DNA of 44,688 bases from a phage: the sequence record PX880098.1; one strand, written 5' to 3'. The notes below the pieces were generated by a model. The model made no database searches, was not told where the DNA came from, and worked only from the letters and a program-made list of their open reading frames with translations. Of the stretch, positions 3,093-41,261 are shown piece by piece. Each line of letters starts with the position of its first letter. Within the stretch, counting starts at the first letter, position 1. Position numbers and translations under genes: made by a program.

Positions 3093-3120
3093 TTCTTTAT
3101 ATCCTCGTTTCGATAACTGA

Positions 3121-3149
3121 ATAGTACCCTATTATATTGGTGTCTGCAA
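3121..3149 (-). promoter_or_regulatory. sigma70-like promoter, family B (TTGCAG-N17-TACTAT)
   Basis: Minus-strand reading TTGCAGacaccaatataatagggTACTATTCA; 17-nt spacer; contains ATAG-N4-CTAT; upstream of the 71-aa gene. Confidence 0.55.
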
Positions 3150-4725: not shown

Positions 4726-4775
4726 TGTCTGTGATTATTCCATTTATTCCACCGAATTGTAAATGTTGGAATAAA

Positions 4776-4787
4776 CTATTCGAATAG
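4776..4787. promoter_or_regulatory. perfect 12-bp palindrome CTATTCGAATAG abutting a -35 element
   Basis: Self-complementary 12-mer immediately upstream of TTGACT at 4788; shares ATAG/CTAT half-sites with the promoter-embedded palindromes. Confidence 0.5.
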
Positions 4788-4816
4788 TTGACTTTTCACT
4801 AAAAATGTGCTAAGCT
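4788..4816 (+). promoter_or_regulatory. sigma70-like promoter (TTGACT-N17-TAAGCT)
   Basis: -35 TTGACT, 17-nt spacer, -10 TAAGCT; upstream of the spanin genes; preceded by ATGTTGGAATAA motif also found at about 5545. Confidence 0.45.
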
Positions 4817-6324: not shown

Positions 6325-7373
6325 TGGCAATTACTACTATCGGCGATATCGTAACTGGTAAAGAATCGGTAATTCTGTCTTATATGACCGAGGACCCGGT
6401 AGAAAAAACCGCGTTCTTCCAGTCCGGTATTCTTACCCCTACTCCGTACGCCGCTGAGATTGCTCGCGGTCCGTCCAACATCGCTAATATTCCTTTCTGG
6501 AAAGCTATCGATACGTCTATCGAGCCTAACTACTCGAACGACGTATACCAGGACATCGCAACCCCGCGTAACGTGCAGACCGGTGAGATGATGGCGCGCG
6601 TTGCGTACCTGAACGAAGGTTTCGGCCAGGCGGACCTGACTGTAGAACTGACCAGCCAGAACCCGCTGCAATCCGTAGCGTCCCGCCTGGATAACTTCTG
6701 GCAGCGCCAGGCGCAACGCCGTCTGATTGCTACCGCGCTTGGCCTGTACAACGACAACGTAGCTGCTACCGATGCCTACCACGAGCAGAACGACATGGTA
6801 ATTGACGTGTCCGCTACTCTGGGCTTCGACTCCGGCGCGTTCATCGATGCTACCCAGACTATGGGTGACGCTCTGATTGGCAACGGCGGCGAAGTGCTAG
6901 GCGCTATTGCTATGCATAGCTTCGTTTATGCGCAGGCACGTAAGCAACAGCTTATTGACTTCATCCGTGACGCCGACAACGACACCATGTTCGCCACCTA
7001 CCAGGGCTATCGTGTGATTGTTGACGACAGCATGACCGTAGTCGGTACAGGCGGCGACCGTAAGTTCATCTCCATCATCTTCGGCAACGGCGCTATCGGT
7101 TACGGGGAAGGCAACCCAACCAATCCGCTGGCCTATGAGCGCGAAGAGTCTCGCGGTAACGGTGGCGGTGTAGAAACCCTGTGGACCCGTAAGACTTGGT
7201 TGCTGCACCCGTTTGGCTACAGCTTCACCAGCGCGGTAATCACCGGCAACGGCACCGAGACTGTCGCACGCTCTGCTTCCTGGCAGGACCTGGCGAACGC
7301 CTCCAACTGGAACCGCGTTGTCGAGCGTAAGCATGTACCGATTGCCTTCCTGGTAACTGGTGTCGGTGCTTAA
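6324..7373 (+). CDS. major capsid protein
   Basis: 349-aa ORF after scaffold, strong SD GAGGA 7 nt upstream, followed by a strong terminator; position and size typical. Confidence 0.7.
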   Translation: MAITTIGDIVTGKESVILSYMTEDPVEKTAFFQSGILTPTPYAAEIARGPSNIANIPFWKAIDTSIEPNYSNDVYQDIATPRNVQTGEMMARVAYLNEGFGQADLTVELTSQNPLQSVASRLDNFWQRQAQRRLIATALGLYNDNVAATDAYHEQNDMVIDVSATLGFDSGAFIDATQTMGDALIGNGGEVLGAIAMHSFVYAQARKQQLIDFIRDADNDTMFATYQGYRVIVDDSMTVVGTGGDRKFISIIFGNGAIGYGEGNPTNPLAYEREESRGNGGGVETLWTRKTWLLHPFGYSFTSAVITGNGTETVARSASWQDLANASNWNRVVERKHVPIAFLVTGVGA

Positions 7374-14208: not shown

Positions 14209-14249
14209 GCTGTAGCTCCTGTTTGAGTTAACATTGTTAGTGTAAGTGA

Positions 14250-14278
14250 ATAGTATCCTATTATGTTGGGGAGTGCAA
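14250..14278 (-). promoter_or_regulatory. sigma70-like promoter, family B (TTGCAC-N17-TACTAT)
   Basis: Minus-strand reading TTGCACtccccaacataataggaTACTATTCAC, almost identical to the plus-strand copy at 36092; drives the Imm/MPE/HAD/kinase operon. Confidence 0.6.
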
Positions 14279-23708: not shown

Positions 23709-23890
23709 TTCTTACCTTCGCTTTTCTTGAAACTGCACTTTATGTCCGGCAGCGTGTAGCACCGTGATTTTTCGTATTTACCGTTCGAGCTTACCAAAAC
23801 AAAGCTGTTGCCGTCTTTTGATATGTACTCGACAATAAAAGTATTGGATGTATGTACGCTGTATATTTCGTCTCCAACATTAAGCTTCAT
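23705..23890 (-). CDS. hypothetical protein (61 aa)
   Basis: ATGA-coupled ORF downstream of helicase gene. Confidence 0.5.
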   Translation of the reverse strand: MKLNVGDEIYSVHTSNTFIVEYISKDGNSFVLVSSNGKYEKSRCYTLPDIKCSFKKSEGKK

Positions 23891-26352
23891 TTCTTACCTC
23901 GTCTCTTCATGTAATTAAGCAATTCTTCCTGGACAGATTTCTTCTCGTCAGTGCGCGCGGCGACAACCTCATCCAGCGTGTCTTTAGCAACGATGTGGTA
24001 TAGGAACACAGGGCGCTCGTGACCCGCCTGTTTCTGGCGTACTGGGCCTATACGCTCAACAACCTGCAAATAGTGCTCAAGGTTCCAGCCTTGTGAAATG
24101 AATGCCAGATGATGCCCTCCGTCCTGTAAATTCAAACCATGGCCCGCTGACGCAGGATGCACGCATAATATTTCGATTTCCCCGCGGTTCCACGCTTCCA
24201 TCTGCTTATTACCTTTAACGCCTTTGGCAAACGCCTGCGCCTGCGGGAATCGCTTAAGGATGCGCTCCAGTTCGTGCTTGAACTGATAGGCCACTAGTAA
24301 CGGCGCACCCTGTAGCTCCTCAACAATGGACTCCAGAGCATCCAGTTTCGTGTCGTGTACTTTCTCCCAGTCTTTCGTTGCTTCGCCATCTGGCCCTGAT
24401 ACGTATACGGCACCGGATGCAATCTGCAGACACTTAGAGGTCTTCGCCGCAGCGTTAGCCGCTTCAACTTCTCCGCTCTCCAGTTCAGCAAATAACTTCT
24501 CCTCCATATCGATGTACGCCTGACGCGCTTTCTTCGGCAGGTCAATTTCAACCGGTACAATTATTGGCGCTTCACAACCAAACCACTCGGCAGCGTCAAT
24601 CGTGAGACTAATGTCCTTCATCTTCTGGTGAATTTCGTTATCCGCACCTGGGCGGGCGTGGTATTCGCGCGCCATAGCCGATTTGCCTTTCTGTACCGAG
24701 TTAAACCAGCGGTCGGTGAATGCTGTGTATGATGACCCCAGGCGCTCGCCAGCGTCGATAAACCAGTTCTGGCCCCACAAGTCCTTGAGGCCGTTTGGTG
24801 ACGGTGTACCGGTCAGATTGATGAAACGTTTAACATTACCGAACGCCACTTTGCTTAGTGCCTTTGCTCGCTTGCTTCCGCCAGAACGGCTGCGGAATGA
24901 TTTCAACTTCGTGCTCTCATCGGCAACAATAACCGTAAAAGGCCAGTCGTCTTTGCCGTAGTAGTCAATCAGCCACTCGATTACCTCATAGTTCGTGCAC
25001 ACCACGTTAGCGTCGGACTCCAGCGCCGCGATGCGGCGCTTCTCTGAACCGGTCGCATCTACGACGCGCAGACAAGGGAAACCCCACTTAGTTTGTTCTG
25101 CCGGCCATGTGCCGGACGCAACACGCAACGGCGCAAGGATTAACACACGGTCGTCATCATTAAGTTGGCCGTTGCGGAACAGCCGATTGAGAACCCACAT
25201 CGTCGAGCTTGTGTTGTGCGTTACGGTGAAGTCGCCTAATAGAAACCGGTGGTCACCGTCGATAGTGAAGCCGTAATAATCATCTACGCCGACCGGGGTT
25301 ATAGATTCTATTCCAACGTTAAGTACGTTTTTATTAATATTACGCTTCGGTAAATTCTGGTGGCGGCCACGCACGAAAGGCACCTCAGAAAAATCGCCTG
25401 ATACCGATACGCGGAAGTAATCCCCCCAAACATCAGTGTTTGCGCAACGCTTACGAGTTTTCTTCTTGTAAGCGGCGAAACCAAGAGAACGGCATAGATA
25501 GCAAAAATCATCAGCGAGTCGCTCGCTTACCGAAATCCAGTCAAAACCTGCTTTAGACAAATCACAATAACCGTCGCTATCCAGAAGCCCCGCCAGCAAT
25601 TCTAAACGTTGCTGCCGGTCGCCGCATTTGTAATTATGCGGTATATGCTTATGGTTCAAGACCCCCGCCGACCTCAGCGCGTGCGTAAGCCCGTGCTTCT
25701 TATTGCCAGTATTGCCGTAAGATATACTCCATGTAAGTCCTTCTTTTCGTATTTGCATCCCATTACGCGCTGCGTACGATTCAAGATACTCCCTTATTTC
25801 CTTTTCGTTTTCCCCAGATGTTATGGCTCCCGACGATGAGGTGCCATCACCAAGCCACAGCCCCATAAGGTACGGGGGCAATAAAGCATCGTCCTGATCT
25901 TTCCTCGGGAAATCGACAGGTACTCGCCAACCCTTAAGATACCCATTAGGTCCGGTTACATATTTCGGCAACTTAAGCCAGTCGCGGACGCTTATGTCGA
26001 AAACGGTATTATCCGGCCATGAACCCTTTGCTATCCCTGTAGTAGTTCGCAGTGATAATATATGGCTTTCGTTTACCGTATACGACTCTCCTTTTCGCGG
26101 TTTAACCTCGTACATCATCTCCCGGCCTCTACCGAGAGACAGTACATTTCTAGGCGTTGAATCTGGCCCCATAAGCACGTCACCGACGATGACGTCTTCT
26201 ACTTTCTTGGTCGTACCGTCAAACATAATAACTTCAGTCCCGCGTTTCAGGCACTTGCCGCTACCCATACTTGCCCAGATATTACAGCGCGGGTTCCGCA
26301 GCATGAACGAGGTCATGAGCTTTTGATAAGGCCTTCTAGTGAATTTACTCAT
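23887..26352 (-). CDS. SNF2-family helicase interrupted by an intein
   Basis: Walker A split as MGSGK|intein|TSS; DExx-like box VIVADESTKLK; NLTGTPSPNGLKDLW and GHGLNLQDGG helicase motifs. Confidence 0.75.
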   Translation of the reverse strand: MSKFTRRPYQKLMTSFMLRNPRCNIWASMGSGKCLKRGTEVIMFDGTTKKVEDVIVGDVLMGPDSTPRNVLSLGRGREMMYEVKPRKGESYTVNESHILSLRTTTGIAKGSWPDNTVFDISVRDWLKLPKYVTGPNGYLKGWRVPVDFPRKDQDDALLPPYLMGLWLGDGTSSSGAITSGENEKEIREYLESYAARNGMQIRKEGLTWSISYGNTGNKKHGLTHALRSAGVLNHKHIPHNYKCGDRQQRLELLAGLLDSDGYCDLSKAGFDWISVSERLADDFCYLCRSLGFAAYKKKTRKRCANTDVWGDYFRVSVSGDFSEVPFVRGRHQNLPKRNINKNVLNVGIESITPVGVDDYYGFTIDGDHRFLLGDFTVTHNTSSTMWVLNRLFRNGQLNDDDRVLILAPLRVASGTWPAEQTKWGFPCLRVVDATGSEKRRIAALESDANVVCTNYEVIEWLIDYYGKDDWPFTVIVADESTKLKSFRSRSGGSKRAKALSKVAFGNVKRFINLTGTPSPNGLKDLWGQNWFIDAGERLGSSYTAFTDRWFNSVQKGKSAMAREYHARPGADNEIHQKMKDISLTIDAAEWFGCEAPIIVPVEIDLPKKARQAYIDMEEKLFAELESGEVEAANAAAKTSKCLQIASGAVYVSGPDGEATKDWEKVHDTKLDALESIVEELQGAPLLVAYQFKHELERILKRFPQAQAFAKGVKGNKQMEAWNRGEIEILCVHPASAGHGLNLQDGGHHLAFISQGWNLEHYLQVVERIGPVRQKQAGHERPVFLYHIVAKDTLDEVVAARTDEKKSVQEELLNYMKRRGKK
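25213..26253 (-). mobile_element. intein with LAGLIDADG homing endonuclease domain (347 aa)
   Basis: Begins with Cys after GSGK, ends THN followed by Thr; two LAGLIDADG-like motifs LMGLWLGDGTS and LAGLLDSDGY; C-terminal block FLLGDFTVTHN. Confidence 0.75.
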
Positions 26353-26570: not shown

Positions 26571-26858
26571 CTAACTATAATAGTATGCTATTAGGGTGTC
26601 AACCTGTTTTATAGAGCCAACCACAAAAACATTCGCACCACGTTTACGCATCCGCTCGTGTTCACGTAACTGGTGCGGGTCTGGCTTCGTGTTTTCGTCT
26701 TTCTTCACCTCGACGAACCAGACTATGCCGCCAGGGAGAATTACCAGCAGGTCAGGAGCGCCGGAACGTCCTTCGTAGGAGAGCTTACGAACGAGGCCAC
26801 CCAGGGCCTCGAATCGCCCCTTCGCATATTTCTGTACGCGCCCCTCAGGCGTACTCAT
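26571..26858 (-). CDS. VRR-NUC domain nuclease
   Basis: PD-(D/E)xK signature GAPDLLVILPGGIVWFVEVKK; SD GAGAGGGG upstream. Confidence 0.55.
   Translation of the reverse strand: MSTPEGRVQKYAKGRFEALGGLVRKLSYEGRSGAPDLLVILPGGIVWFVEVKKDENTKPDPHQLREHERMRKRGANVFVVGSIKQVDTLIAYYYS
26574..26602 (-). promoter_or_regulatory. sigma70-like promoter, family A (TTGACA-N17-TATAGT)
   Basis: Minus-strand reading TTGACAccctaatagcatactatTATAGT with AT-rich upstream region; contains ATAG-N4-CTAT. Confidence 0.6.
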
Positions 26859-26939
26859 CTACGCACCCCTCTCGTTTTGTGTGCTCAATCCCGCAGCGCG
26901 GACAGATTCGATAGTCTTCTTCGTAGAACCAGTAAATTT

Positions 26940-27071
26940 TCATTCCAGCACCCACAGATAAATTGCGACGAACATACCTAATACGGCGACAATCATGCCG
27001 TATTGACCCTCGTGACAGTAGACCCCGGCGGCAAATCCCGCCAGTACCGCGATAATCAGTTTACTTAGCAT
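26940..27071 (-). CDS. small hydrophobic protein (43 aa), absent from ORF track
   Basis: ATG overlaps the 3-prime end of the polymerase gene; sequence MLSKLIIAVLAGFAAGVY...FVAIYLWVLE predicts a membrane hairpin. Confidence 0.35.
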   Translation of the reverse strand: MLSKLIIAVLAGFAAGVYCHEGQYGMIVAVLGMFVAIYLWVLE

Positions 27072-29301
27072 AACGCATCATCTCCGCGCCTTCTGCTACA
27101 AGAGGGAACCCCTCGGCCCATTCAGGTAATTCGCACATCAACCGCTCAAGTTCAGCCACCGTGTACTCGGGGGTATCTGGTGTCTCGCAGATAATCTCAT
27201 CGTGGACATGAAGTACAATCGGATAACCGTTTGCTTCTACGTTCAGCAGCGCGTTGGCCAGCAAATCACGGCACAACGCCTGGGTGCAGTTTTCCACCAG
27301 TTTACCGGAGTAGGTGTACTGGAAGCCCCACTGGCGGGTTAGCTGATTTTCGCCCTGGTACTTGATGCGCACGTTAGTAGACACCTTTCCGTCTTCATCT
27401 GTCTCTTTCGATACACTTAACCCGACGCCAGGGTATGACATAACGCGACCCGACGGCAACGTCATGCGCAGCCACCAACCAGCGACCTTGTTGCCGTTGT
27501 TGTCTGTTTCTACGTTGCGCGAAAACTTAACCCCCCGCGGCCCTGCGGTGAACTCTTTACCCGGATTGCGGATAGCCGCCATAGCCGCGTCTTCAATATC
27601 GCGCCAGAATTGGACTATTGCAGGATTAGCTTCCCGGTACATGCGCTTTAAAGCGTCACAGGTACGCCAGACTTTCTTATCAAGAATATACGATGGTCTG
27701 TCATCCTTTTCACCAGGACGTGGGGGGCGCTTGGCTTCCTGAATACGCGCCCACTCATAGCCTCGCGCGGTAGCAGCCCAGATATGGTCCGGGAAAGTCC
27801 CGTCTAAAGTGCAGGTCATATCGTTCAAATCAAGACCTAAGTTTTTAGCAAACGTGACGAAAGCACCGACGCCCCCCGCGTAGCCGAGGCCCAGAACCAT
27901 TGCTTTGGCTATTTGTCTTTGGTCCTTTGTTACGGCTTCATACGCAACGTTGAACACCGTTGATGCGAGTTTCTTGTACACATCAACCCCGTTTACAAAT
28001 ACTTCGATTAAATCGTCTTCTCCGGCCAGCCACGCAAGCCCGCGGCCCTCGACGTTGGAGTAATCGGCAACAACAAACTTATGCCCTGCTTCCGGTATTA
28101 TGCAGCTGCGCACCGTCGACGCCGTTAGTTTGGCTACATCGAAACGGCGATGTGCGCGTCCTTTAAGCAGAAGGTCTATTCCGTAGGACAATGGGTGCGT
28201 TACTCGCCACCAGTCCTTCTCTGACATCCAGTCGTAACGTACTTTCTTCTTTTCATTCTTCGGGTCGTCGTGATAGTACCCGCGCGCCAGGTTCTGTGGC
28301 TGAAAGCCTTTACCCGCAAACCGCAATGTACGCTTAGCCCCACCATACTGGATGCAGCCACGGCGGCGGTCGTCCGACGAGCGGCCCAACAGCAGCGGGT
28401 TATATTTCGTTGACGCAGTGGACGCGGCGCCGAGGCGCATTTCGATAATCGTGCGGGCGTCGTCCGGTAAATCATCATCTGCTAGCAGGTCATTCAGCAT
28501 CGACTTCTGTGCGTTATGGATGCGGTGCGCTGGCGCAAGTTCACGCAGAATCGGCAAGAAGTCTTTACCAGTAAGTGAGCCGCCGTATTTACGTTGGGCT
28601 TCTTCCTGTAACTGCGCCTTGTGTTTCTCTACCGCTTCAATCGCTGCTTCTGCAAGCGCGACGTCAACCTTAAACCCGCGGTCATTGATTAACTGGTCCA
28701 GCTCCAGTACACGGTCTTCGAACTCGGAGTTACCCCACCGCGGCAGCTTATGGAAGACTTCGCGCATCGCAGTGATGTCGCTAACGGCGTACTTGATGAA
28801 CAGCGACCACTCATCCGGGTGCGTTTCCGCGGTGTAGCGTCTGATTTTGTAGTTCTTCGGTGTCGGTTTAGAGAAACGCTGAATCAGTGCCTTGCCGCGT
28901 TTGTCTTTCGCGTTGTCGGCGGATACACCAAGCACTTCACACAAGGCGTCAAGTGAACCGGGCAGCGCGTGACGAAAAGCCCAAATCATCGTATCAATAG
29001 TGTTGCTTACCGGAATATCAAAACCCCAGCAGTGCTTCATGATGAGCCTGTCGAACATTGAGCCGTTGTGCCACACCATCTTGATGCGGCTGTTTGGCTT
29101 AACCAGTCGGCGTAGCGCGCGGTGCAAATCGCCCGGCATATCGCTGCCGTCAGTGCAATCCCATACCTGCACAGGCTCGTCGTCAAAAGCATAGGTACAG
29201 ATAAGCACTTCTGTAGTTGGGTGTTCGGCGTAAGCGTAAGAACCGACTTTCTTTAAATCGGCTTCGGAGAATGTTTCAAAGTCTAAGAACAGGTAACTCA
29301 T
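27061..29301 (-). CDS. DNA polymerase, family A, with 3-prime-5-prime exonuclease domain
   Basis: Exo I motif LDFETFS; motif A DYSNVEGRGLA, motif B RQIAKAMVLGLGYAGG, motif C HVHDEII. Confidence 0.85.
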   Translation of the reverse strand: MSYLFLDFETFSEADLKKVGSYAYAEHPTTEVLICTYAFDDEPVQVWDCTDGSDMPGDLHRALRRLVKPNSRIKMVWHNGSMFDRLIMKHCWGFDIPVSNTIDTMIWAFRHALPGSLDALCEVLGVSADNAKDKRGKALIQRFSKPTPKNYKIRRYTAETHPDEWSLFIKYAVSDITAMREVFHKLPRWGNSEFEDRVLELDQLINDRGFKVDVALAEAAIEAVEKHKAQLQEEAQRKYGGSLTGKDFLPILRELAPAHRIHNAQKSMLNDLLADDDLPDDARTIIEMRLGAASTASTKYNPLLLGRSSDDRRRGCIQYGGAKRTLRFAGKGFQPQNLARGYYHDDPKNEKKKVRYDWMSEKDWWRVTHPLSYGIDLLLKGRAHRRFDVAKLTASTVRSCIIPEAGHKFVVADYSNVEGRGLAWLAGEDDLIEVFVNGVDVYKKLASTVFNVAYEAVTKDQRQIAKAMVLGLGYAGGVGAFVTFAKNLGLDLNDMTCTLDGTFPDHIWAATARGYEWARIQEAKRPPRPGEKDDRPSYILDKKVWRTCDALKRMYREANPAIVQFWRDIEDAAMAAIRNPGKEFTAGPRGVKFSRNVETDNNGNKVAGWWLRMTLPSGRVMSYPGVGLSVSKETDEDGKVSTNVRIKYQGENQLTRQWGFQYTYSGKLVENCTQALCRDLLANALLNVEANGYPIVLHVHDEIICETPDTPEYTVAELERLMCELPEWAEGFPLVAEGAEMMRYAK

Positions 29302-29320
29302 TATTTTGACCCTTAGTAAA

Positions 29321-29340
29321 AAGGCCCAATGAAGGGCCTT
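29321..29340 (-). terminator. hairpin with downstream T run (possible attenuator before polymerase gene)
   Basis: AAGGCCC-AATGAA-GGGCCTT; minus-strand reading followed by TTTTACT. Confidence 0.4.
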
Positions 29341-29359
29341 AGTTAAATTGATTCAGATA

Positions 29360-29986
29360 TTAGCGGCGGCGACGTTCGCGGCGCGGTGCCCCATCTTCTT
29401 CGTCGTCTTCCAGGTCATTGACGCTTGCTGCGACTTTAGAACCGCCGAACGCTTTACCTTCACCAACGTATTTAATTGCCAGAAGGTTAACACCGAGAAC
29501 TTTATATTTCTGGCTGAACCAGATTTCGACGCTTGCGTTAGCGACACAGCCGCTGTAAACCTGTTCGCCTTCAATCTGTTCTCCGTCTACATTGAAGTCC
29601 TGCTCTACCTGAGTCTCACCTTTTTTAGAGGTTACAATCAGCGGCTGTTTCTGTGCCTTCGCTTTGAAGTAGAAGCCTTCCGGGAAGTCTTCAAACGGAT
29701 TGTCGCGCTCAGCAATGTCTTTAATCGCGCATTTATCCATGTGCTTACCTTCACCGTAGTTGGACTTCATCCACTTCTCGGCAGCGGCTGCACCTAACGC
29801 TTCTTCAACTACAGCGTACACAGTGTCGTAGAGCGCATCGATTTGAGCATGGTCTGACGGCAGGATGATAGTCGCGCTGTACTGGCCTTTAGTGATGGAG
29901 CCATCATCGTTTTCACGGTCTTTTTCGCGTTCAAATACGTTAACCCATGCAGTGTTTACTTTACGCAGATTTAATTTCAGTCCCAT
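29360..29986 (-). CDS. putative single-stranded DNA-binding protein (T7 gp2.5-like organisation)
   Basis: 208 aa; position between exonuclease and polymerase; C-terminal acidic stretch DLEDDEED followed by basic RRERRRR; assignment tentative. Confidence 0.4.
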   Translation of the reverse strand: MGLKLNLRKVNTAWVNVFEREKDRENDDGSITKGQYSATIILPSDHAQIDALYDTVYAVVEEALGAAAAEKWMKSNYGEGKHMDKCAIKDIAERDNPFEDFPEGFYFKAKAQKQPLIVTSKKGETQVEQDFNVDGEQIEGEQVYSGCVANASVEIWFSQKYKVLGVNLLAIKYVGEGKAFGGSKVAASVNDLEDDEEDGAPRRERRRR

Positions 29987-30041
29987 TTCTCGATTCCTCA
30001 GTTTTCAGTTTACTCCGGGAGCTGCCCGGCCAGTGATTAGA

Positions 30042-30070
30042 ACTATAATAGCTAACTATTCAGGTGTCAA
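30042..30070 (-). promoter_or_regulatory. sigma70-like promoter, family A (TTGACA-N17-TATAGT)
   Basis: Minus-strand reading TTGACAcctgaatagttagctatTATAGT; near-identical to the copy at 32491. Confidence 0.6.
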
Positions 30071-30074
30071 CACT

Positions 30075-31316
30075 TTATTCTAAATCTTCTTCACTAACCT
30101 GATTCCACTCAGGCCGTTTGTCGTCTGCCGTTGCGACGCATGGCGCGCCTGGCTTACGTGTAATGAAGTCTTTCAGTTCTTCTTCGGGTATTACTTTAAC
30201 AGCTTCTGTCGGCGTCATGAGCACTTGCTTCATTAGTGCTATGCCATACTCGCCAGCCACTTTCTCTGTATCTTTCCACGCACGATTGCCCATCTTACCT
30301 TCAACCAGCTTGTACCCCGGAACTTTCTTACCGGAATGCAAAGCGGCGGCCATCGCTTTCTCAACCTTGTCGATGTGCTGGCGCAACAACGGCAACTTCT
30401 CATACTCAGCTACGAGTTGCTCTGGTGTAAGTTCCAGTGCAAAGTCGTCTTCCAGTTCTTCCGCCAGTACAGAATTAACCGTTTTTGTACGCGCTGCGCA
30501 CTGTTCAGAGAAACGACACCACTGGCATCCATCGACCGACGGCTTGAAGTCAGACGCTTTCAGGTTCTTTTTACCGCGAGAATAAGCATCAAGGGCTAAC
30601 AATGCACGTTTCTGTGCGAACTTAGCGAACAGTTCCAGACCTTCAACCGAGATGTCCCACTCGGACGCCCCGCCAGCATACGGCTGGAAGATGACCAGAC
30701 GAACCACGGTGATGTTATAACGTCTCTTGAGTCGGCGATAGACACCGAGAGCATAAAGCATAAGCTGCTTGTTTTCTTTCGCTTCAACACGATGTCGTCC
30801 AGTTTTCAGGTCGCCGACAATGAGCATGTGCTCGTCTGTGTTTGCCAGTTCCTGAACGGCAACAAGGTCAGCGGTTCCGAACGTCTCAACGCCTTCATAC
30901 CCGGGATGCAACACCTCAGTAAGATTGACGCGCATTTCCAGCTTGGCGTAAGTCGCTACGTCGATAATCGCTTTGCAATAGTCTGTGTACTTGCGCACCT
31001 GCTCAATCATGTCAGCCGTAATCAGTACCGCGCCTTTCATCTGGCTGATTAGCGCCTTAATCTGGCCTTTACCCTCGTCCAGCACATAAGCGCCGAGTTC
31101 GCGCTCTAGCGGCAGCGCAGTGCCTTTGATGTACTGATTTAAATGGACCTCAGCTATAGTGTGCATAGCTGTGCCTAATACCGCAGATTTACCTGACGTG
31201 TTAGGGATATCTTTTTCACAGGCCAGCGATGCGGCGCAGCTTAACCACTTTTTAGCACCTGACGGCGACAGTAAGGCGTGCACATCGTTATTGCCGCCGC
31301 GTTCTTTTAAAATCAT
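30075..31316 (-). CDS. Cas4/RecB-like PD-(D/E)xK exonuclease with Fe-S cysteine cluster
   Basis: Nuclease core LIVGDLKTG; N-terminal Cys (LSCAASLAC) plus C-terminal CQWCRFSEQC as in Cas4-type nucleases; C-terminus SEEDLE. Confidence 0.6.
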   Translation of the reverse strand: MILKERGGNNDVHALLSPSGAKKWLSCAASLACEKDIPNTSGKSAVLGTAMHTIAEVHLNQYIKGTALPLERELGAYVLDEGKGQIKALISQMKGAVLITADMIEQVRKYTDYCKAIIDVATYAKLEMRVNLTEVLHPGYEGVETFGTADLVAVQELANTDEHMLIVGDLKTGRHRVEAKENKQLMLYALGVYRRLKRRYNITVVRLVIFQPYAGGASEWDISVEGLELFAKFAQKRALLALDAYSRGKKNLKASDFKPSVDGCQWCRFSEQCAARTKTVNSVLAEELEDDFALELTPEQLVAEYEKLPLLRQHIDKVEKAMAAALHSGKKVPGYKLVEGKMGNRAWKDTEKVAGEYGIALMKQVLMTPTEAVKVIPEEELKDFITRKPGAPCVATADDKRPEWNQVSEEDLE

Positions 31317-31453
31317 TCCGTAATCTCCTCAATCCACGCGCAATCAAAACTGTCTGCGTCAAGTTCGTCTAGCATGTATTCAGCATCAGCGTAAGTTAGG
31401 TATCGACTGTGCTCGTAATCTTTATCGCCAATTGAGTACATAACCGCAAACAT
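31313..31453 (-). CDS. small acidic protein (46 aa), absent from ORF track
   Basis: SD GGGAGG before ATG 31453; stop overlaps exonuclease start (ATGA); overlaps the end of ORF 31422-31721 by about 30 nt, so uncertain. Confidence 0.3.
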   Translation of the reverse strand: MFAVMYSIGDKDYEHSRYLTYADAEYMLDELDADSFDCAWIEEITE

Positions 31454-31721
31454 TCCGTACCTCCCACTGGTCAATTAAATGCCGCGTCTGGTGCTGGCAG
31501 TGCATAGCCCACCCATACATCGATTCGAAGACATAAAAGTCAGGTTTGGCGAAAGTCGTGCGCTTAATCTGCAACACGTGGCGGCCTATATCTTTAGGCC
31601 GCGGCACTTTGCCTAAGTATGCCATCTCTTCCATCTGGTGCGCACCGGACGGCGCACGCAACAGCCACAACGCCTCTGTGTTATCTCGCCCGTCTACGGC
31701 GCGGTAGAGTTGGTAAATCAT
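31422..31721 (-). CDS. hypothetical protein (99 aa)
   Basis: ATGA-coupled ORF in replication operon. Confidence 0.5.
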   Translation of the reverse strand: MIYQLYRAVDGRDNTEALWLLRAPSGAHQMEEMAYLGKVPRPKDIGRHVLQIKRTTFAKPDFYVFESMYGWAMHCQHQTRHLIDQWEVRNVCGYVLNWR

Positions 31722-31927
31722 TCTGCAACCTCACATTCGCCGGCGGCCAAGCTAAAATAGAACACATCATCATCACACTCAGACCTAATATTTAACCCAA
31801 ATTTGTCAAATTCTGTCTCGCTAACATCGAAGCCCTTACCAGCCCAATCATATCCATTGACTTCCACTGGAAAATTAATACTCGACAGTTCGGCGTATCC
31901 GTCGTCGTTCAGTAGCCTTATTTTCAT
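31718..31927 (-). CDS. hypothetical protein (69 aa, acidic)
   Basis: ORF in replication operon. Confidence 0.5.
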   Translation of the reverse strand: MKIRLLNDDGYAELSSINFPVEVNGYDWAGKGFDVSETEFDKFGLNIRSECDDDVFYFSLAAGECEVAE

Positions 31928-31970
31928 ATTTCCGACCCTCAGTTAAAGCGGCCCGAAAGCCGCCGGATAA

Positions 31971-32459
31971 TTATTCTTCTTCGAAATACTTGTTCTTGAT
32001 TGCCGTCAGGCGTTCCAGGTACTCCGCCAGGTCTTCGTCTTTAATCGCGGCAATCTTCATTTTCTTACCAGTGAACTCTTCCAGCAGTTCATCAGAATCA
32101 TCGCACGCGGCATCGCTCGGACCTTCGTTAATAGCGTCATCGATAGCCTGAATCTGGTCACGAAGAGACTGGTAATCTACTTCTTCCTGCTCTGGCGCTG
32201 GCTCCTCTGCTTTAGCTTTACGCGGCTTGCGTTTTGACTTCTCTTCTTCTTCCGGTTTAGTGTCAACGATGTCTTCACCTTCGACCGGAATTTCTTTTGA
32301 AGGTTTAGTTAAAGCCTCTTTTACGCTTACACCCTGCAACTTACAAAACTCAGCAAAATGTTCTGGTGAGCCAATCACAGGTTCTTTCACACTGTTCGCG
32401 GCAATCAGTTCATGCGCAACTACGAAACGTTCCAGTAATACTAAGAATTTCTCTAACAT
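31971..32459 (-). CDS. hypothetical acidic protein (162 aa)
   Basis: First gene after promoter 32491-32520; conserved leader TAAACGAGAGGAGAGAAACAA before ATG. Confidence 0.55.
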   Translation of the reverse strand: MLEKFLVLLERFVVAHELIAANSVKEPVIGSPEHFAEFCKLQGVSVKEALTKPSKEIPVEGEDIVDTKPEEEEKSKRKPRKAKAEEPAPEQEEVDYQSLRDQIQAIDDAINEGPSDAACDDSDELLEEFTGKKMKIAAIKDEDLAEYLERLTAIKNKYFEEE

Positions 32460-32490
32460 TTGTTTCTCTCCTCTCGTTTAGTATGGGCTA

Positions 32491-32520
32491 ACTATAATAG
32501 CTAACTATTCATGTTGTCAA
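32491..32520 (-). promoter_or_regulatory. sigma70-like promoter, family A (TTGACA-N18-TATAGT)
   Basis: Minus-strand reading TTGACAacatgaatagttagctatTATAGT; divergent from the HTH gene. Confidence 0.6.
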
Positions 32521-32584
32521 TGGGCTTTTCTAAAATAATTAATATGGTACTATTCACATATCAACTGACTAAGGAGTAATTGAC

Positions 32585-32800
32585 ATGCAACCATCTGAGC
32601 TAGGTATCCGTGTAGAACAACGCCGCAAAGAACTCGGCATCTCCCAGCGCCGTCTGGCTGTCCTGGCCGGCGTTTCCCAGGGCGCGATTAACCAACTGGC
32701 TCTCGGGGTAACTCAGGACGTCCGCCCGGCAACTCTGTTTAAACTGGCGGAAGTGCTGCAAGTAGACGCCAAGTGGCTGGCGTTCGGTGAAGGGGCTTAA
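32585..32800 (+). CDS. XRE-family HTH transcriptional regulator (Cro-like)
   Basis: 71 aa; HTH ISQRRLAVLAGVSQGAINQLALG; only plus-strand gene in the replication block, divergent from a family A promoter. Confidence 0.7.
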   Translation: MQPSELGIRVEQRRKELGISQRRLAVLAGVSQGAINQLALGVTQDVRPATLFKLAEVLQVDAKWLAFGEGA

Positions 32801-32816
32801 CGCCCCTTTCTTTTTG
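32790..32816 (+). terminator. intrinsic terminator after HTH gene
   Basis: GGGGC-TTAAC-GCCCC followed by TTTCTTTTTG. Confidence 0.6.
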
Positions 32817-35117: not shown

Positions 35118-35351
35118 TTATTCCAGGTCTTCTAAAGTAGCGGTCATTCCGCGAACTTCAGCAACAGCGCTATATTTCCCGCCCACATTTTTCACGACAC
35201 CGGATTTAACCAGTACTCGTAACGACGCTTCAATAATGGCGGAACTATAGTACTTAAAATAACTACGGCGCAAGTCGATAACACTGCACGACCCTTTTTT
35301 ACGTGTTAACGAAACTACAGCTGTGAATACCCGTGACTGAAACTCGGTCAT
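35118..35351 (-). CDS. hypothetical small protein (77 aa), possible winged-helix
   Basis: ATGA-coupled to upstream HTH ORF; C-terminus TATLEDLE. Confidence 0.5.
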   Translation of the reverse strand: MTEFQSRVFTAVVSLTRKKGSCSVIDLRRSYFKYYSSAIIEASLRVLVKSGVVKNVGGKYSAVAEVRGMTATLEDLE

Positions 35352-35518
35352 TTCACGTTCTCCTTAATCCATGCTTCCACTTTCTCCGGGTCGAACGTGC
35401 CTGGCTGCCGGCGGCCCATAATGCGAATACAACAATCCGGGAACTTCCCACTCTTTAACCAGTTATTGAGCGTGCGGCGAGTAACCCCGATACGCTCAGC
35501 TACTTCATTCTGTGTCAT
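35348..35518 (-). CDS. AlpA/Xis-like HTH DNA-binding protein (56 aa), absent from ORF track
   Basis: SD AAGGAG before ATG 35518; HTH VAERIGVTRRTLNNWLKSGKFP; stop overlaps next start (ATGA). Confidence 0.6.
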   Translation of the reverse strand: MTQNEVAERIGVTRRTLNNWLKSGKFPDCCIRIMGRRQPGTFDPEKVEAWIKENVK

Positions 35519-36091: not shown

Positions 36092-36120
36092 TTGCACGCC
36101 CCAACATAATAGGATACTAT
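36092..36120 (+). promoter_or_regulatory. sigma70-like promoter, family B (TTGCAC-N17-TACTAT)
   Basis: TTGCACgccccaacataataggaTACTATTCAC; contains ATAG-N4-CTAT; upstream of the PAPS-reductase-like gene. Confidence 0.6.
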
Positions 36121-36154
36121 TCACTTATAGTGACGAGACAGAGGAGTGATGGTC

Positions 36155-36916
36155 ATGAGCAAGCCGGTAATAGCGGTCTGGTTTTCGTGTGGTGCTGCCA
36201 GTGCGGTAGCTGCAAAAATAACTATCGAGAAATACAGTCATACTCATGATGTGCGTGTGCTTAACAACCCGGTGGCAGAGGAGGACGCTGACAACATACG
36301 TTTTCTTCATGATGTTGAAAATTGGATAGGTGTGAAAATTGAATCAGTAATTAACCCTATGTTCCCGAACGCCAGCGCTGTAGAGGTCTGGGACCATCAG
36401 CGTTATATGTCCGGCATTGCTGGAGCACCATGTACGAAGGCACTTAAGAAGCTCGCCAGAAAGCATTGGGAGCAATCAAATCGCTGTGACCATATCGTGC
36501 TTGGTTTTACTGCTGATGAGGCGCATCGCGCAGATAATTTCGTCAAAAACGAAAGGCGCAGTTTGATTCCAGTTCTGATTGAAGCCGGATACACAAAAGG
36601 AGACTGCTTTCGAATCCTTCTGGAGAACGGCATTCGACTTCCTCGTATTTATCACTTGGGTTACCCAAACGCGAACTGCATAGGATGTGTAAAAGCCACA
36701 TCTCCAACCTACTGGAATCTTGTCCGTCGCGTTCATCCTGAGGTATTTGTCCAACGTGCAGAGCAATCACGACGATTGGGTGTTCGTCTTGTTAGATATT
36801 CCGGAGAGCGCATCTATCTCGACGAGTTGCCGCCAGACGCAGTTGGCCGCCCAATAAAAAGTCTTGATTTTGAATGTGGGATTTTCTGTAAACCAGCAGA
36901 TGAGGATGAAGAATGA
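36155..36916 (+). CDS. PAPS reductase-like / PP-loop ATP pyrophosphatase superfamily protein with C-terminal Cys pairs
   Basis: N-terminal VWFSCGAAS at the position of a PP-loop SGGxDS; C-terminal CIGC and CGIFC; start ATG 36155 chosen 8 nt after GAGGAG. Confidence 0.5.
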   Translation: MSKPVIAVWFSCGAASAVAAKITIEKYSHTHDVRVLNNPVAEEDADNIRFLHDVENWIGVKIESVINPMFPNASAVEVWDHQRYMSGIAGAPCTKALKKLARKHWEQSNRCDHIVLGFTADEAHRADNFVKNERRSLIPVLIEAGYTKGDCFRILLENGIRLPRIYHLGYPNANCIGCVKATSPTYWNLVRRVHPEVFVQRAEQSRRLGVRLVRYSGERIYLDELPPDAVGRPIKSLDFECGIFCKPADEDEE

Positions 36917-37634: not shown

Positions 37635-37784
37635 ATGAGAGAAGCATTCGAACGGTGGGCCGTAGTCGAGGGTCTGCCGGTTAACAAGGGTTCGAAGAAA
37701 GAGTACCTGAACGTTAAGACGCGTCTCGCGTGGCGGGCGTGGAAAGCTGGTGCGCAATTTCGTGCTGGTGTAACAGGTCAATAG
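37635..37784 (+). CDS. small basic protein (49 aa), absent from ORF track
   Basis: SD GGAGGA before ATG 37635; 49 uninterrupted codons; followed by terminator. Confidence 0.5.
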   Translation: MREAFERWAVVEGLPVNKGSKKEYLNVKTRLAWRAWKAGAQFRAGVTGQ

Positions 37785-37807
37785 GTTACTATTTTGCTTT
37801 GTGTCTT

Positions 37808-37837
37808 ACGCTGCTACACAGCAGCGTATCATTTTTC
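37808..37837 (+). terminator. rho-independent terminator
   Basis: ACGCTGCT-ACAC-AGCAGCGT followed by ATCATTTTTC. Confidence 0.65.
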
Positions 37838-37921: not shown

Positions 37922-37950
37922 TTGCACGCTAAGATAGAATAGGCTACTAT
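37922..37950 (+). promoter_or_regulatory. sigma70-like promoter, family B (TTGCAC-N17-TACTAT)
   Basis: TTGCACgctaagatagaataggcTACTATTCAT; contains ATAG-N4-CTAT; followed by conserved leader. Confidence 0.6.
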
Positions 37951-37981
37951 TCATTTACACAAACGAGAGGAGAGACAGAAG

Positions 37982-40616: not shown

Positions 40617-41082
40617 TGGATTGCAGTTCAAGAAAGCGTGGGAAAAGTTTCGCGGAACTGCATACAAAGCAACGCCGAACGAGAAATACTGGACTATAGG
40701 CTGGGGCCATACCGGGCCTGATGTGTACGAAGGGCAGAAGATTACAGAAGGCCAGGGGTTGCTGTTACTGAACCGCGATATGCAGTGGGCTGTGAAAGCA
40801 GTCGATGACGTCGCACACCCCTCCCTGACCCAGGCCCAGTTTGATGCTGTTGTTGACCTGGTGTTCAACGCAGGGACTGGCGTGATCGCGGCTACTACTG
40901 GCACGGGTAAGGCCCTGCGCTCCGGTGATGTTGCGACGCTGCGGGCTAAGCTGGCGCTGTTCATCAATCAGAACGGCAAACCGTTACTCGGCCTGCGTCG
41001 CCGTACCGCCGGTCGTCTGGCGCTGTTCGACGGTAAACCGTGGCAGGAGGCTGAGGCTATTGGGCGCGCGGTGAAAGGTTGA
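40594..41082 (+). CDS. endolysin, T4 lysozyme-like (GH24)
   Basis: KATPNEKYWTIGWGHT matches the T4-lysozyme-type YxxIGxGH catalytic region; GTG start 8 nt after GGAGG; listed ORF has longer N-terminal extension. Confidence 0.7.
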   Translation: MSRNISDNGLQFKKAWEKFRGTAYKATPNEKYWTIGWGHTGPDVYEGQKITEGQGLLLLNRDMQWAVKAVDDVAHPSLTQAQFDAVVDLVFNAGTGVIAATTGTGKALRSGDVATLRAKLALFINQNGKPLLGLRRRTAGRLALFDGKPWQEAEAIGRAVKG

Positions 41083-41178: not shown

Positions 41179-41261
41179 TCTATTTTCTGCAATGACTAGT
41201 GGACTATTATTCTCGACCCTATTATACTTACTCCATCGACAGCGAGAACGGAGTAGAGAAT

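Follow-up and report, generated by a model that had tools for sequence, protein, structure and literature searches.

Promoters of the replication block

The DNA analysed here (sequence record PX880098.1; 44.7 kb, all of which we call the window) is the near-complete genome of a Kagunavirus-type (Guernseyvirinae) Escherichia coli siphophage, about 90% identical to phages Sciku, Bas76, K1G relatives, and others. Its replication and recombination genes form a block on the minus strand that contains three closely similar promoter-like elements, here termed P1, P2, and P3 (family A). Our subject is a 14-bp palindrome in the spacers of these elements, which recurs at other promoters of the genome and is probably the operator of a small Cro-like protein encoded next to P3.

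In the direction of transcription, the block begins behind P3 with a 162-aa gene, three small genes, and a PD-(D/E)XK/DUF2800 exonuclease gene. Behind P2 lies the gene of a Gp2.5/Enc34-type single-stranded DNA (ssDNA)-binding protein (ssDNA-binding/annealing), followed by a family-A DNA polymerase, small genes, and a VRR-NUC nuclease; behind P1 lie a 63-aa gene and an SNF2 helicase with a Hint/LAGLIDADG intein. P3 stands back-to-back with the promoter of a 71-aa HTH_3 (XRE) regulator gene on the plus strand (32585–32800), which has a terminator-like hairpin at 32789–32809.

A first-pass annotation of this DNA had placed strong sigma-70-type promoters for the replication block, each a TTGACA, a spacer of 17 or 18 nt, and a TATAGT, at three positions on the minus strand, and our analysis bears this out. 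P1 (26602–26574, minus strand; TTGACAccctaatagcatactatTATAGT) comprises TTGACA at 26602–26597, a 17-nt spacer, and TATAGT at 26579–26574, with a predicted start at ~26567. P2 (30070–30042, minus strand; TTGACAcctgaatagttagctatTATAGT) has TTGACA at 30070–30065, again a 17-nt spacer, TATAGT at 30047–30042, and a predicted start at ~30035, and P3 (32520–32491, minus strand; TTGACAacatgaatagttagctatTATAGT) has TTGACA at 32520–32515, an 18-nt spacer, TATAGT at 32496–32491, and a predicted start at ~32484. The pattern TTGACA-N16–19-TATAGT has exactly these 3 matches on the two strands of the window (0.01 expected from shuffles), and the same elements are the sole 11/12 matches to the sigma-70 consensus in the whole 44.7 kb, with an exact −35 and a −10 that agrees with the consensus at 5/6 positions. 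Minus-strand start codons, each with a Shine-Dalgarno sequence, follow 32–56 nt downstream, and the three elements stand ahead of genes for replication and recombination. No other sites in the genome are as good candidates, by sequence, for sigma-70-type promoters as P1–P3, each of which has a −35, a −10 at suitable spacing, and a co-oriented gene downstream; their reading as promoters is well supported in silico.

Two further descriptions in that annotation hold for part of the set. The spacers, said to be near-identical, are so at P2 and P3, which have gaatagttagctat in common within 19 identical nt (AATAGTTAGCTATTATAGT), but the P1 spacer (aatagCATActat) differs mid-way, and the TTAG centre of P2 and P3 is not conserved in relatives. 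Likewise, the tracts upstream of the −35, said to be AT-rich, have an A+T content (over 25 nt) of 72% at P2 (top 2.6% of 25-mers) and 80% at P3 (under 1%), but only 60% at P1, which is in coding sequence. The final 10 codons of the VRR-NUC (Holliday-junction resolvase-like) open reading frame (ORF) contain P1 and its palindrome, and the stop codon TAG of this ORF (26573–26571) is directly 3' of the P1 −10 hexamer.

Antisense promoters at P1–P3 were also considered, as there is a perfect opposite-strand TATAAT at each of them along with a plus-strand AACTAT that resembles the −10 of the class-B promoters described below; they were rejected, there being no usable −35 at 16–18 bp. The direct repeat ATAGTTAGC, which occurs twice in P3 at 13-bp spacing, is not conserved (the P3 centre is mostly TTCG in relatives) and is taken as coincidence.

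A palindrome common to two promoter classes

What is conserved in the spacers of P1–P3 is a 14-bp palindrome, AATAG-N4-CTATT, which overlaps the −10 hexamer by one base, its last T doubling as the first T of that hexamer. The copies are at 26579–26592 in P1 (AATAGCATACTATT in the minus-strand reading), 30047–30060 in P2 (AATAGTTAGCTATT), and 32496–32509 in P3 (again AATAGTTAGCTATT); P1 keeps both arms and has the centre CATA rather than TTAG. Over the window we found 8 exact copies of AATAG-N4-CTATT (0.01 expected) and 10 copies of the looser form AATA-N6-TATT (0.57 expected), 9 of which stand in promoter-like contexts, the tenth being an orphan at 37780. The palindrome is not private to family A: five of its copies lie outside P1–P3, and four of these are in promoters of a second design.

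These promoters, which we term class B, follow the pattern TTGCAC-N10-AATAGGNTACTATTCA, with a −10 hexamer TACTAT that is contained in the right arm at 17 bp from the −35. Two are on the minus strand. The copy at 3120–3133 (TTGCAG at 3149–3144, N10, −10 TACTAT at 3126–3121) precedes a minus-strand gene of 71 aa, and that at 14249–14262 (TTGCAC at 14278–14273, −10 TACTAT at 14255–14250) precedes an operon of superinfection-immunity, exonuclease, and kinase genes. The plus-strand copies are at 36108–36121 (TTGCAC at 36092–36097, −10 TACTAT at 36115–36120), ahead of a gene resembling phosphoadenosine-phosphosulfate (PAPS) reductase, and at 37938–37951 (TTGCAC at 37922–37927, −10 TACTAT at 37945–37950), ahead of a rightward operon of small genes, the first of them DUF7170. 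Each class-B promoter heads a non-structural operon. The first gene behind the copy at 36108 (36155–36916, plus strand) matches the PHROG family of phosphoadenosine-phosphosulfate reductase with an E value of 1e-40 and is an unusual accessory gene in this setting.

Two other copies stand apart. An imperfect one with one mismatch (AATATGGTACTATT, 32541–32554, plus strand) lies over the putative −10 TACTAT (32548–32553) in front of the 71-aa regulator gene; its centre is 45 bp from that of the P3 palindrome, and no other two copies are as near to each other. It is invariant in the Kagunavirus relatives, and imperfect counterparts occupy the same place in Jerseyvirus and in the Cornellvirus Shemara. 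The orphan (AATAGGTTACTATT, 37780–37793) has no recognisable −35 and ends 13 nt upstream of a strong terminator hairpin (37807–37828), an arrangement that is conserved in relatives; it could be a roadblock or belong to a tiny transcript.

The position of the palindrome relative to the start differs by 6 bp between the two designs (about −25 to −12 in family A, about −19 to −6 in class B). All copies also have asymmetric flanks, the extended motif being TG-AATAG...CTATT-AT and never TG...CA (e.g., 30045–30062 and 36106–36123), and these flanks point in opposite directions relative to transcription in family A and class B. Two registers and reversed flanks would be tolerated by a separately bound protein, whereas an element contacted by RNA polymerase would not tolerate them.

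This bears on a published interpretation of the repeat. The genome papers on the Kagunavirus phages fBC-Eco01 (PMC9825357, Table S2; 20-nt consensus tgAATAGTa-ccTATTat-T) and VB_EcoS-Golestan (PMC7203180) each report seven PHIRE repeats as phage promoters, for fBC-Eco01 under the name 'phage RNAP promoters' (RNAP, RNA polymerase); these are the same repeat at the same positions as the class-B, regulator, and P1-type sites described here. The three TTGACA/TATAGT minus-strand promoters are absent from the host-promoter list given for fBC-Eco01 (PMC9825357). Both papers assign the repeat to a phage RNA polymerase that is not encoded, leave its dyad symmetry unremarked, and draw no link to a helix-turn-helix (HTH) regulator; we found no paper that does so in the searched literature. 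In a wider sense, the motif might be an element for the transcription machinery, either a phage-specific promoter or the site of a factor that redirects host polymerase by sigma appropriation or as an activator. A helper factor is conceivable in class B, with its weak −35 and a right arm that doubles as the −10, and AATAG also abuts the −35 of two more promoters (4783 and 41195; see below). However, we found no RNA polymerase gene among the ORFs of the window or in annotated relatives (checked window ORFs of at least 250 aa are structural, replication, PAPS-reductase-like, or homing-endonuclease genes, or have no assigned function), on which ground the phage RNAP promoter reading was rejected. 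The motif is moreover palindromic and occurs in two registers with reversed flanks, rather than asymmetric in a fixed register, and family A, with near-perfect sigma-70 hexamers at optimal spacing, needs no helper. Overall, a role as a promoter element seems quite unlikely.

Conservation of the palindrome arms among related phages

Regions homologous to P1, P2, and P3 were picked out in 40 related loci (IMG/VR contigs, K1G, Bas76, and the Jerseyviruses Ent1 and LSPA1) through the similarity of their flanks, without use of the motif, and the unique sequences were aligned. The left arm AATAG is intact in 97/100 unique promoter sequences and the right arm CTATT also in 97/100 (left and right, respectively: P1, 31/33 and 33/33; P2, 34/35 and 34/35; P3, 32/32 and 30/32), while the central tetramer takes 11 forms at P1, 8 at P2, and 7 at P3. 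Relatives keep TTGAC of the −35, with a variable sixth base at P1, and the linker of 4–5 nt between the −35 and the palindrome varies and carries a 1-nt indel (spacer 17 or 18), indicating that the palindrome keeps its place with respect to the −10. In the coding sequence at P1, the arms show no change at synonymous positions, and changes in the centre alter the encoded amino acids. Fixed arms around a variable centre read as the signature of a protein-binding dyad whose centre is not contacted, a pattern that neither duplication nor RNA polymerase contacts would be expected to leave. The earlier remark that these spacers are more conserved than RNA polymerase requires is upheld in this more specific form, the conserved unit being the palindrome.

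The alignment also speaks to explanations in which no trans-acting factor takes part: P1–P3 may have arisen by recent duplication of a single promoter cassette, or the spacer may be kept for promoter strength, which spacer sequence is known to affect, or for a host nucleoid or transcription factor. P2 does behave as a mobile cassette, in that relatives have unrelated mosaic DNA upstream of its −35, at which conservation begins abruptly, and its 19-nt identity with P3 in this phage would suit a duplication. Yet the arms remained fixed while centre and linker diverged repeatedly, in Kagunavirus as well as in Jerseyvirus, the opposite of neutral decay after duplication, and the palindrome is also present in a differently built promoter class and at the orphan site. 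A hairpin or cruciform role was rejected as well, the arms being 5 bp around a 4-nt centre and the family-A site lying upstream of the start.

Comparison across genera argues against a host factor in particular. Kagunavirus (on E. coli) and Jerseyvirus (on Salmonella) share AATAG-N4-CTATT, of which Shemara, also a Salmonella phage, has 0 copies. In its place, Shemara has the only partly symmetric ATTAG-N4-GTAWT (5 exact copies, 0.15 expected) at the positions equivalent to P2, P3, and the regulator gene; the motif is seen at 6873, 8264, 31402, 35221, and 38487. In phiEap-2, AATA-N6-TATT occurs in 8 copies (0.62 expected), at promoters; the forms seen there are AATAG-N4-GTATT and AATAT-N4-CTATT. 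Henuyfy11N, considered as a possible fifth lineage, proved Kagunavirus-like in this region. The motif tracks phage lineage and not host, being shared across phages of E. coli and Salmonella and differing between two genera on Salmonella, so that a host transcription factor is disfavoured as the binder. Taking these points together, we hold it very unlikely that the palindrome is kept in the absence of a dedicated phage factor.

A 434 Cro homologue encoded beside P3

The 71-aa protein encoded divergently from P3 is the candidate operator-binding protein. It matches Pfam HTH_3 (E 1.2e-12), and its best solved homologue is the Cro protein of phage 434, itself 71 aa long, aligned over residues 6–68, i.e., full length (E 4.9e-7). 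An AlphaFold model built from the single sequence (pLDDT 84) is a five-helix fold whose closest match in the PDB is 2cro (TM 0.72–0.78), with the 434 repressor domain next. The operators of phage 434 are 14-bp sites, ACAA-N6-TTGT, whose central bases vary and are left uncontacted, a geometry that agrees with the one found here. Base 1 of the 434 operator is contacted by a Gln of 434 Cro, and the residue aligned with it is a conserved Gln in each of the four lineages compared here (Kagunavirus, Jerseyvirus, Shemara, and phiEap-2), all of which have A at base 1.

Gene position is consistent with this assignment. The regulator gene is divergent from P3 and has an operator-like site on its own promoter, and the HTH_3 homologues of Shemara (39% identical) and phiEap-2 (36%) each adjoin an operator copy. 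More distant HTH_3 homologues on viral contigs, found mostly in temperate-looking contexts with unrelated 14-bp palindromes of their own, are uninformative on this operator. The Shemara and phiEap-2 motif variants would suit a specificity-swap study.

The binder may instead be another phage protein, such as the 56-aa HTH_17 (excisionase/MerR-like) protein encoded at 35348–35518 (minus strand; weak MerR_1 match) or a small unannotated one. MerR-type proteins classically bind inside promoter spacers. Kagunavirus and Jerseyvirus, with the same operator arms, have HTH_17 proteins that are 86–88% identical, as against only 52% for HTH_3, and Shemara has neither the HTH_17 gene nor AATAG-N4-CTATT. 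On the other hand, phiEap-2 lacks a homologue of the HTH_17 protein (best tblastn E 0.6) and yet has its 8 AATA-N6-TATT sites and an adjoining HTH_3 homologue, and Shemara keeps a related motif at equivalent promoters without HTH_17. The spacers of 17/18 bp also differ from the 19–20 bp of MerR-type promoters, the HTH_17 protein has no solved homologue by sequence, and its gene adjoins no operator copy. Judged by sequence and structural model, the 71-aa protein is the stronger candidate, and binding by the HTH_17 protein or another phage protein appears unlikely.

A proposed repression circuit

Our data favour, with moderate confidence, a scheme in which sigma-70 promoters of this phage are occluded by the 434-Cro-like protein at shared 14-bp operators. 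From the elements themselves, their over-representation, their position-specific conservation, and the family and fold of the protein, all of which are observed, we infer that the promoters fire at the predicted places, that this protein binds the sites, and that it represses, as well as when it does so. P1–P3, with near-perfect hexamers and optimal spacing, would be read unaided by host sigma-70 polymerase. The regulator would bind the palindromes as a dimer that contacts the outer 4–5 bp of each half-site and leaves the centre uncontacted, and such a Cro-like dimer, sitting at −25 to −12 in family A and at −19 to −6 in class B, would exclude RNA polymerase. As the regulator accumulates, it would turn down the whole set of early, replication, and accessory promoters along with its own, and the site at the latter, imperfect in every lineage examined, would give weaker autoregulation. 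The net result for the replication and accessory operons would be feedback or shut-down, which promoters that lack a full operator, e.g., TTGACT-N17-TAAGCT at 4788 and TTGACA-N17-GATACT at 41079, would escape.

In RNA sequencing (RNA-seq) of a Kagunavirus (PMC12645636), the only transcriptome for the genus, an HTH-domain gene is one of only four 'early' genes, a point in favour of the scheme, though the data are coarse. Sampling extended up to 120 min for a latent period of 30 min and carried no 5'-end information. Since the time points far exceed one latent period, this dataset neither supports nor refutes the timing proposed here.

Several points weigh against the scheme. In the same dataset, DNA polymerase and the superinfection-immunity gene are classed 'late' (PMC12645636), and the first gene after P3 is labelled '13.88 kDa late protein' in relatives, a label whose basis we could not trace. 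The class-B promoters are weak by consensus (~7/12) and yet stand ahead of major operons; pure repression of promoters that are already weak is not an obviously sensible design, and the regulator could have a second role there. The Kagunavirus and Jerseyvirus regulators, at 52% identity, have different recognition helices (SQGAINQ vs SQSLITH) in the face of identical operator arms, so that the co-variation of protein and operator, which rests on four lineages, is suggestive but not clean. The sites could also be bound by some other small phage protein that has escaped annotation. The searched literature contained neither transcription start mapping nor binding, footprint, or reporter data for Guernseyvirinae phages.

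Half-sites at other promoters

Operator half-sites also occur at promoters without a full operator. A perfect palindrome, ACTATTCGAATAGT (within 4770–4816, plus strand), has the half-sites in inverted order, with its centre near −41.5, and abuts the −35 of the TTGACT-N17-TAAGCT promoter at 4788, upstream of spanin, scaffold, and capsid genes; an inverted repeat, TTATTCC-N17-GGAATAA, lies directly upstream of it. This site is conserved in K1G, LSPA1, and fBC-Eco01 (HP1) and not in Ent1. A degenerate copy, ACTAGTGGACTATT (within 41195–41228, plus strand), overlaps the −35 TGGACT of a TGGACT-N17-TATACT promoter, and the equivalent site in Ent1 has AATAG directly 5' of TTGACT. The site at 41195 represents a third mode of joining half-site and promoter.

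In a more far-reaching version of the scheme, the 434-Cro-like protein would be a dual-function master timer of infection, repressing both promoter classes and acting positively or as a roadblock elsewhere. The candidate places for such action are the late promoter at 4783, with ACTATTCGAATAGT, and the orphan copy at 37780. We regard this version as improbable.

Transcription units within the block

The first-pass annotation had P1–P3 divide the replication block into three transcription units, and only part of this division is reflected in terminators. A terminator-like hairpin (29340–29318, minus strand; AAGGCCC-ttcatt-GGGCCTT and a T run) lies between the ssDNA-binding and DNA polymerase genes and would end the P2 unit. 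With a folding free energy of −13 kcal/mol (z −3.5), it is the only convincing terminator found that bears on the three units; the consensus terminator scan missed it on account of its short T run, and it was found by reading and folding the sequence. The annotations of Ent1 and Shemara have terminators at the corresponding position. No terminator was found before P2 or P1, and the hairpin that follows the first P3 gene is a weak candidate (z −0.9). The lack of a terminator before either promoter and the intragenic position of P1 imply nested, reinforcing transcripts rather than three separate units, and P2 and P1 seem to be internal promoters that boost read-through transcription, not clean unit boundaries.

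A second hairpin lies in the P2 leader (30015–30029, minus strand), ~6–20 nt after the predicted start, with a 5-bp GC stem (CCGGG-loop-CCCGG). It is kept in all relatives with variable loop length, including a compensatory CCTGG/CCAGG in Shemara, though its folding energy alone is unremarkable (z −0.08). This hairpin may serve as a 5' stabiliser or as a translational operator for the ssDNA-binding protein; P2, the leader hairpin, the ssDNA-binding protein gene, and the terminator make up a compact cassette.

At the end of the block, the helicase (821 aa; 23887–26352, minus strand) contains Hint and LAGLIDADG homing-endonuclease domains, i.e., an intein, and is annotated likewise in the Salmonella phage Ent1. 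In several close relatives, the same position holds an intein-less helicase and a methyltransferase.

Relation to known regulatory systems

The closest parallel is the 434 Cro/repressor system. In both cases, the regulator is a small protein with an HTH_3 domain (here a single domain of 71 aa, with 434 Cro as the best match in sequence and in fold), and the operators, like OR1–3 and OL1–3 of phage 434, are 14 bp long and twofold symmetric, with the outer 4–5 bp conserved and the central 4–6 bp variable. Both also have operators that overlap sigma-70 promoters, with the regulator gene next to a regulated promoter and a weaker site on the promoter of that gene. The differences are equally clear. 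The half-site is AATA(G) here and ACAA in 434, and the family-A operator lies wholly inside the spacer. Single operators are dispersed at about ten promoters, in contrast to the two triplets of 434 with cooperative binding; the adjacent tripartite operators that Cro shares with a CI repressor as part of a lysis–lysogeny switch have no counterpart in this phage. The ORF map of the window and the annotation of relatives contain neither an integrase nor a CI-like second repressor, and this phage group, without a lysogeny module, is regarded as virulent.

Operators between or over the hexamers of strong sigma-70 promoters, with mutually exclusive binding of repressor and polymerase, are also found in lambdoid PR/PL, in Pant of P22, and in the engineered PLtetO-1 and PA1lacO-1. 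Those promoters use repressors of other families and other sites, whereas a single operator type appears here in two registers and two promoter classes. The 'stoperators' of mycobacteriophages L5 and Bxb1 resemble the present sites in being many dispersed copies of one short repressor site, some of them off promoters (as is the orphan at 37780). Stoperators, however, are asymmetric 13-bp sites of temperate phages that are oriented with transcription and act on elongation, and the sites described here are symmetric and nearly all overlap promoter hexamers. Older work on phage MB78 reportedly described a strong promoter that has no −35 and interacts with a phage factor.

Implications for the Guernseyvirinae

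The mechanism proposed here is a textbook phage control circuit, and the advance is one of assignment rather than principle. It would replace an untenable published annotation, that of 'phage RNAP promoters', with a testable circuit of about ten 14-bp operators, two promoter architectures, and one Cro-like protein, and would provide a compact natural set of strong, repressible sigma-70 promoters. The Guernseyvirinae, which include the Jersey-like Salmonella phages and the Kagunavirus coliphages, are among the phages most often isolated as candidates for therapy and biocontrol, and their regulation is essentially unstudied; these results should be of use mainly to phage biologists and to those who annotate or engineer therapy-relevant phages. 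If the dual-function version were true, the protein would be a global regulator in a subfamily regarded as strictly virulent and not just a leftover Cro. As it stands, the 'repressor' gene of these supposedly virulent phages is probably a regulator of the lytic cycle rather than a remnant of lysogeny.

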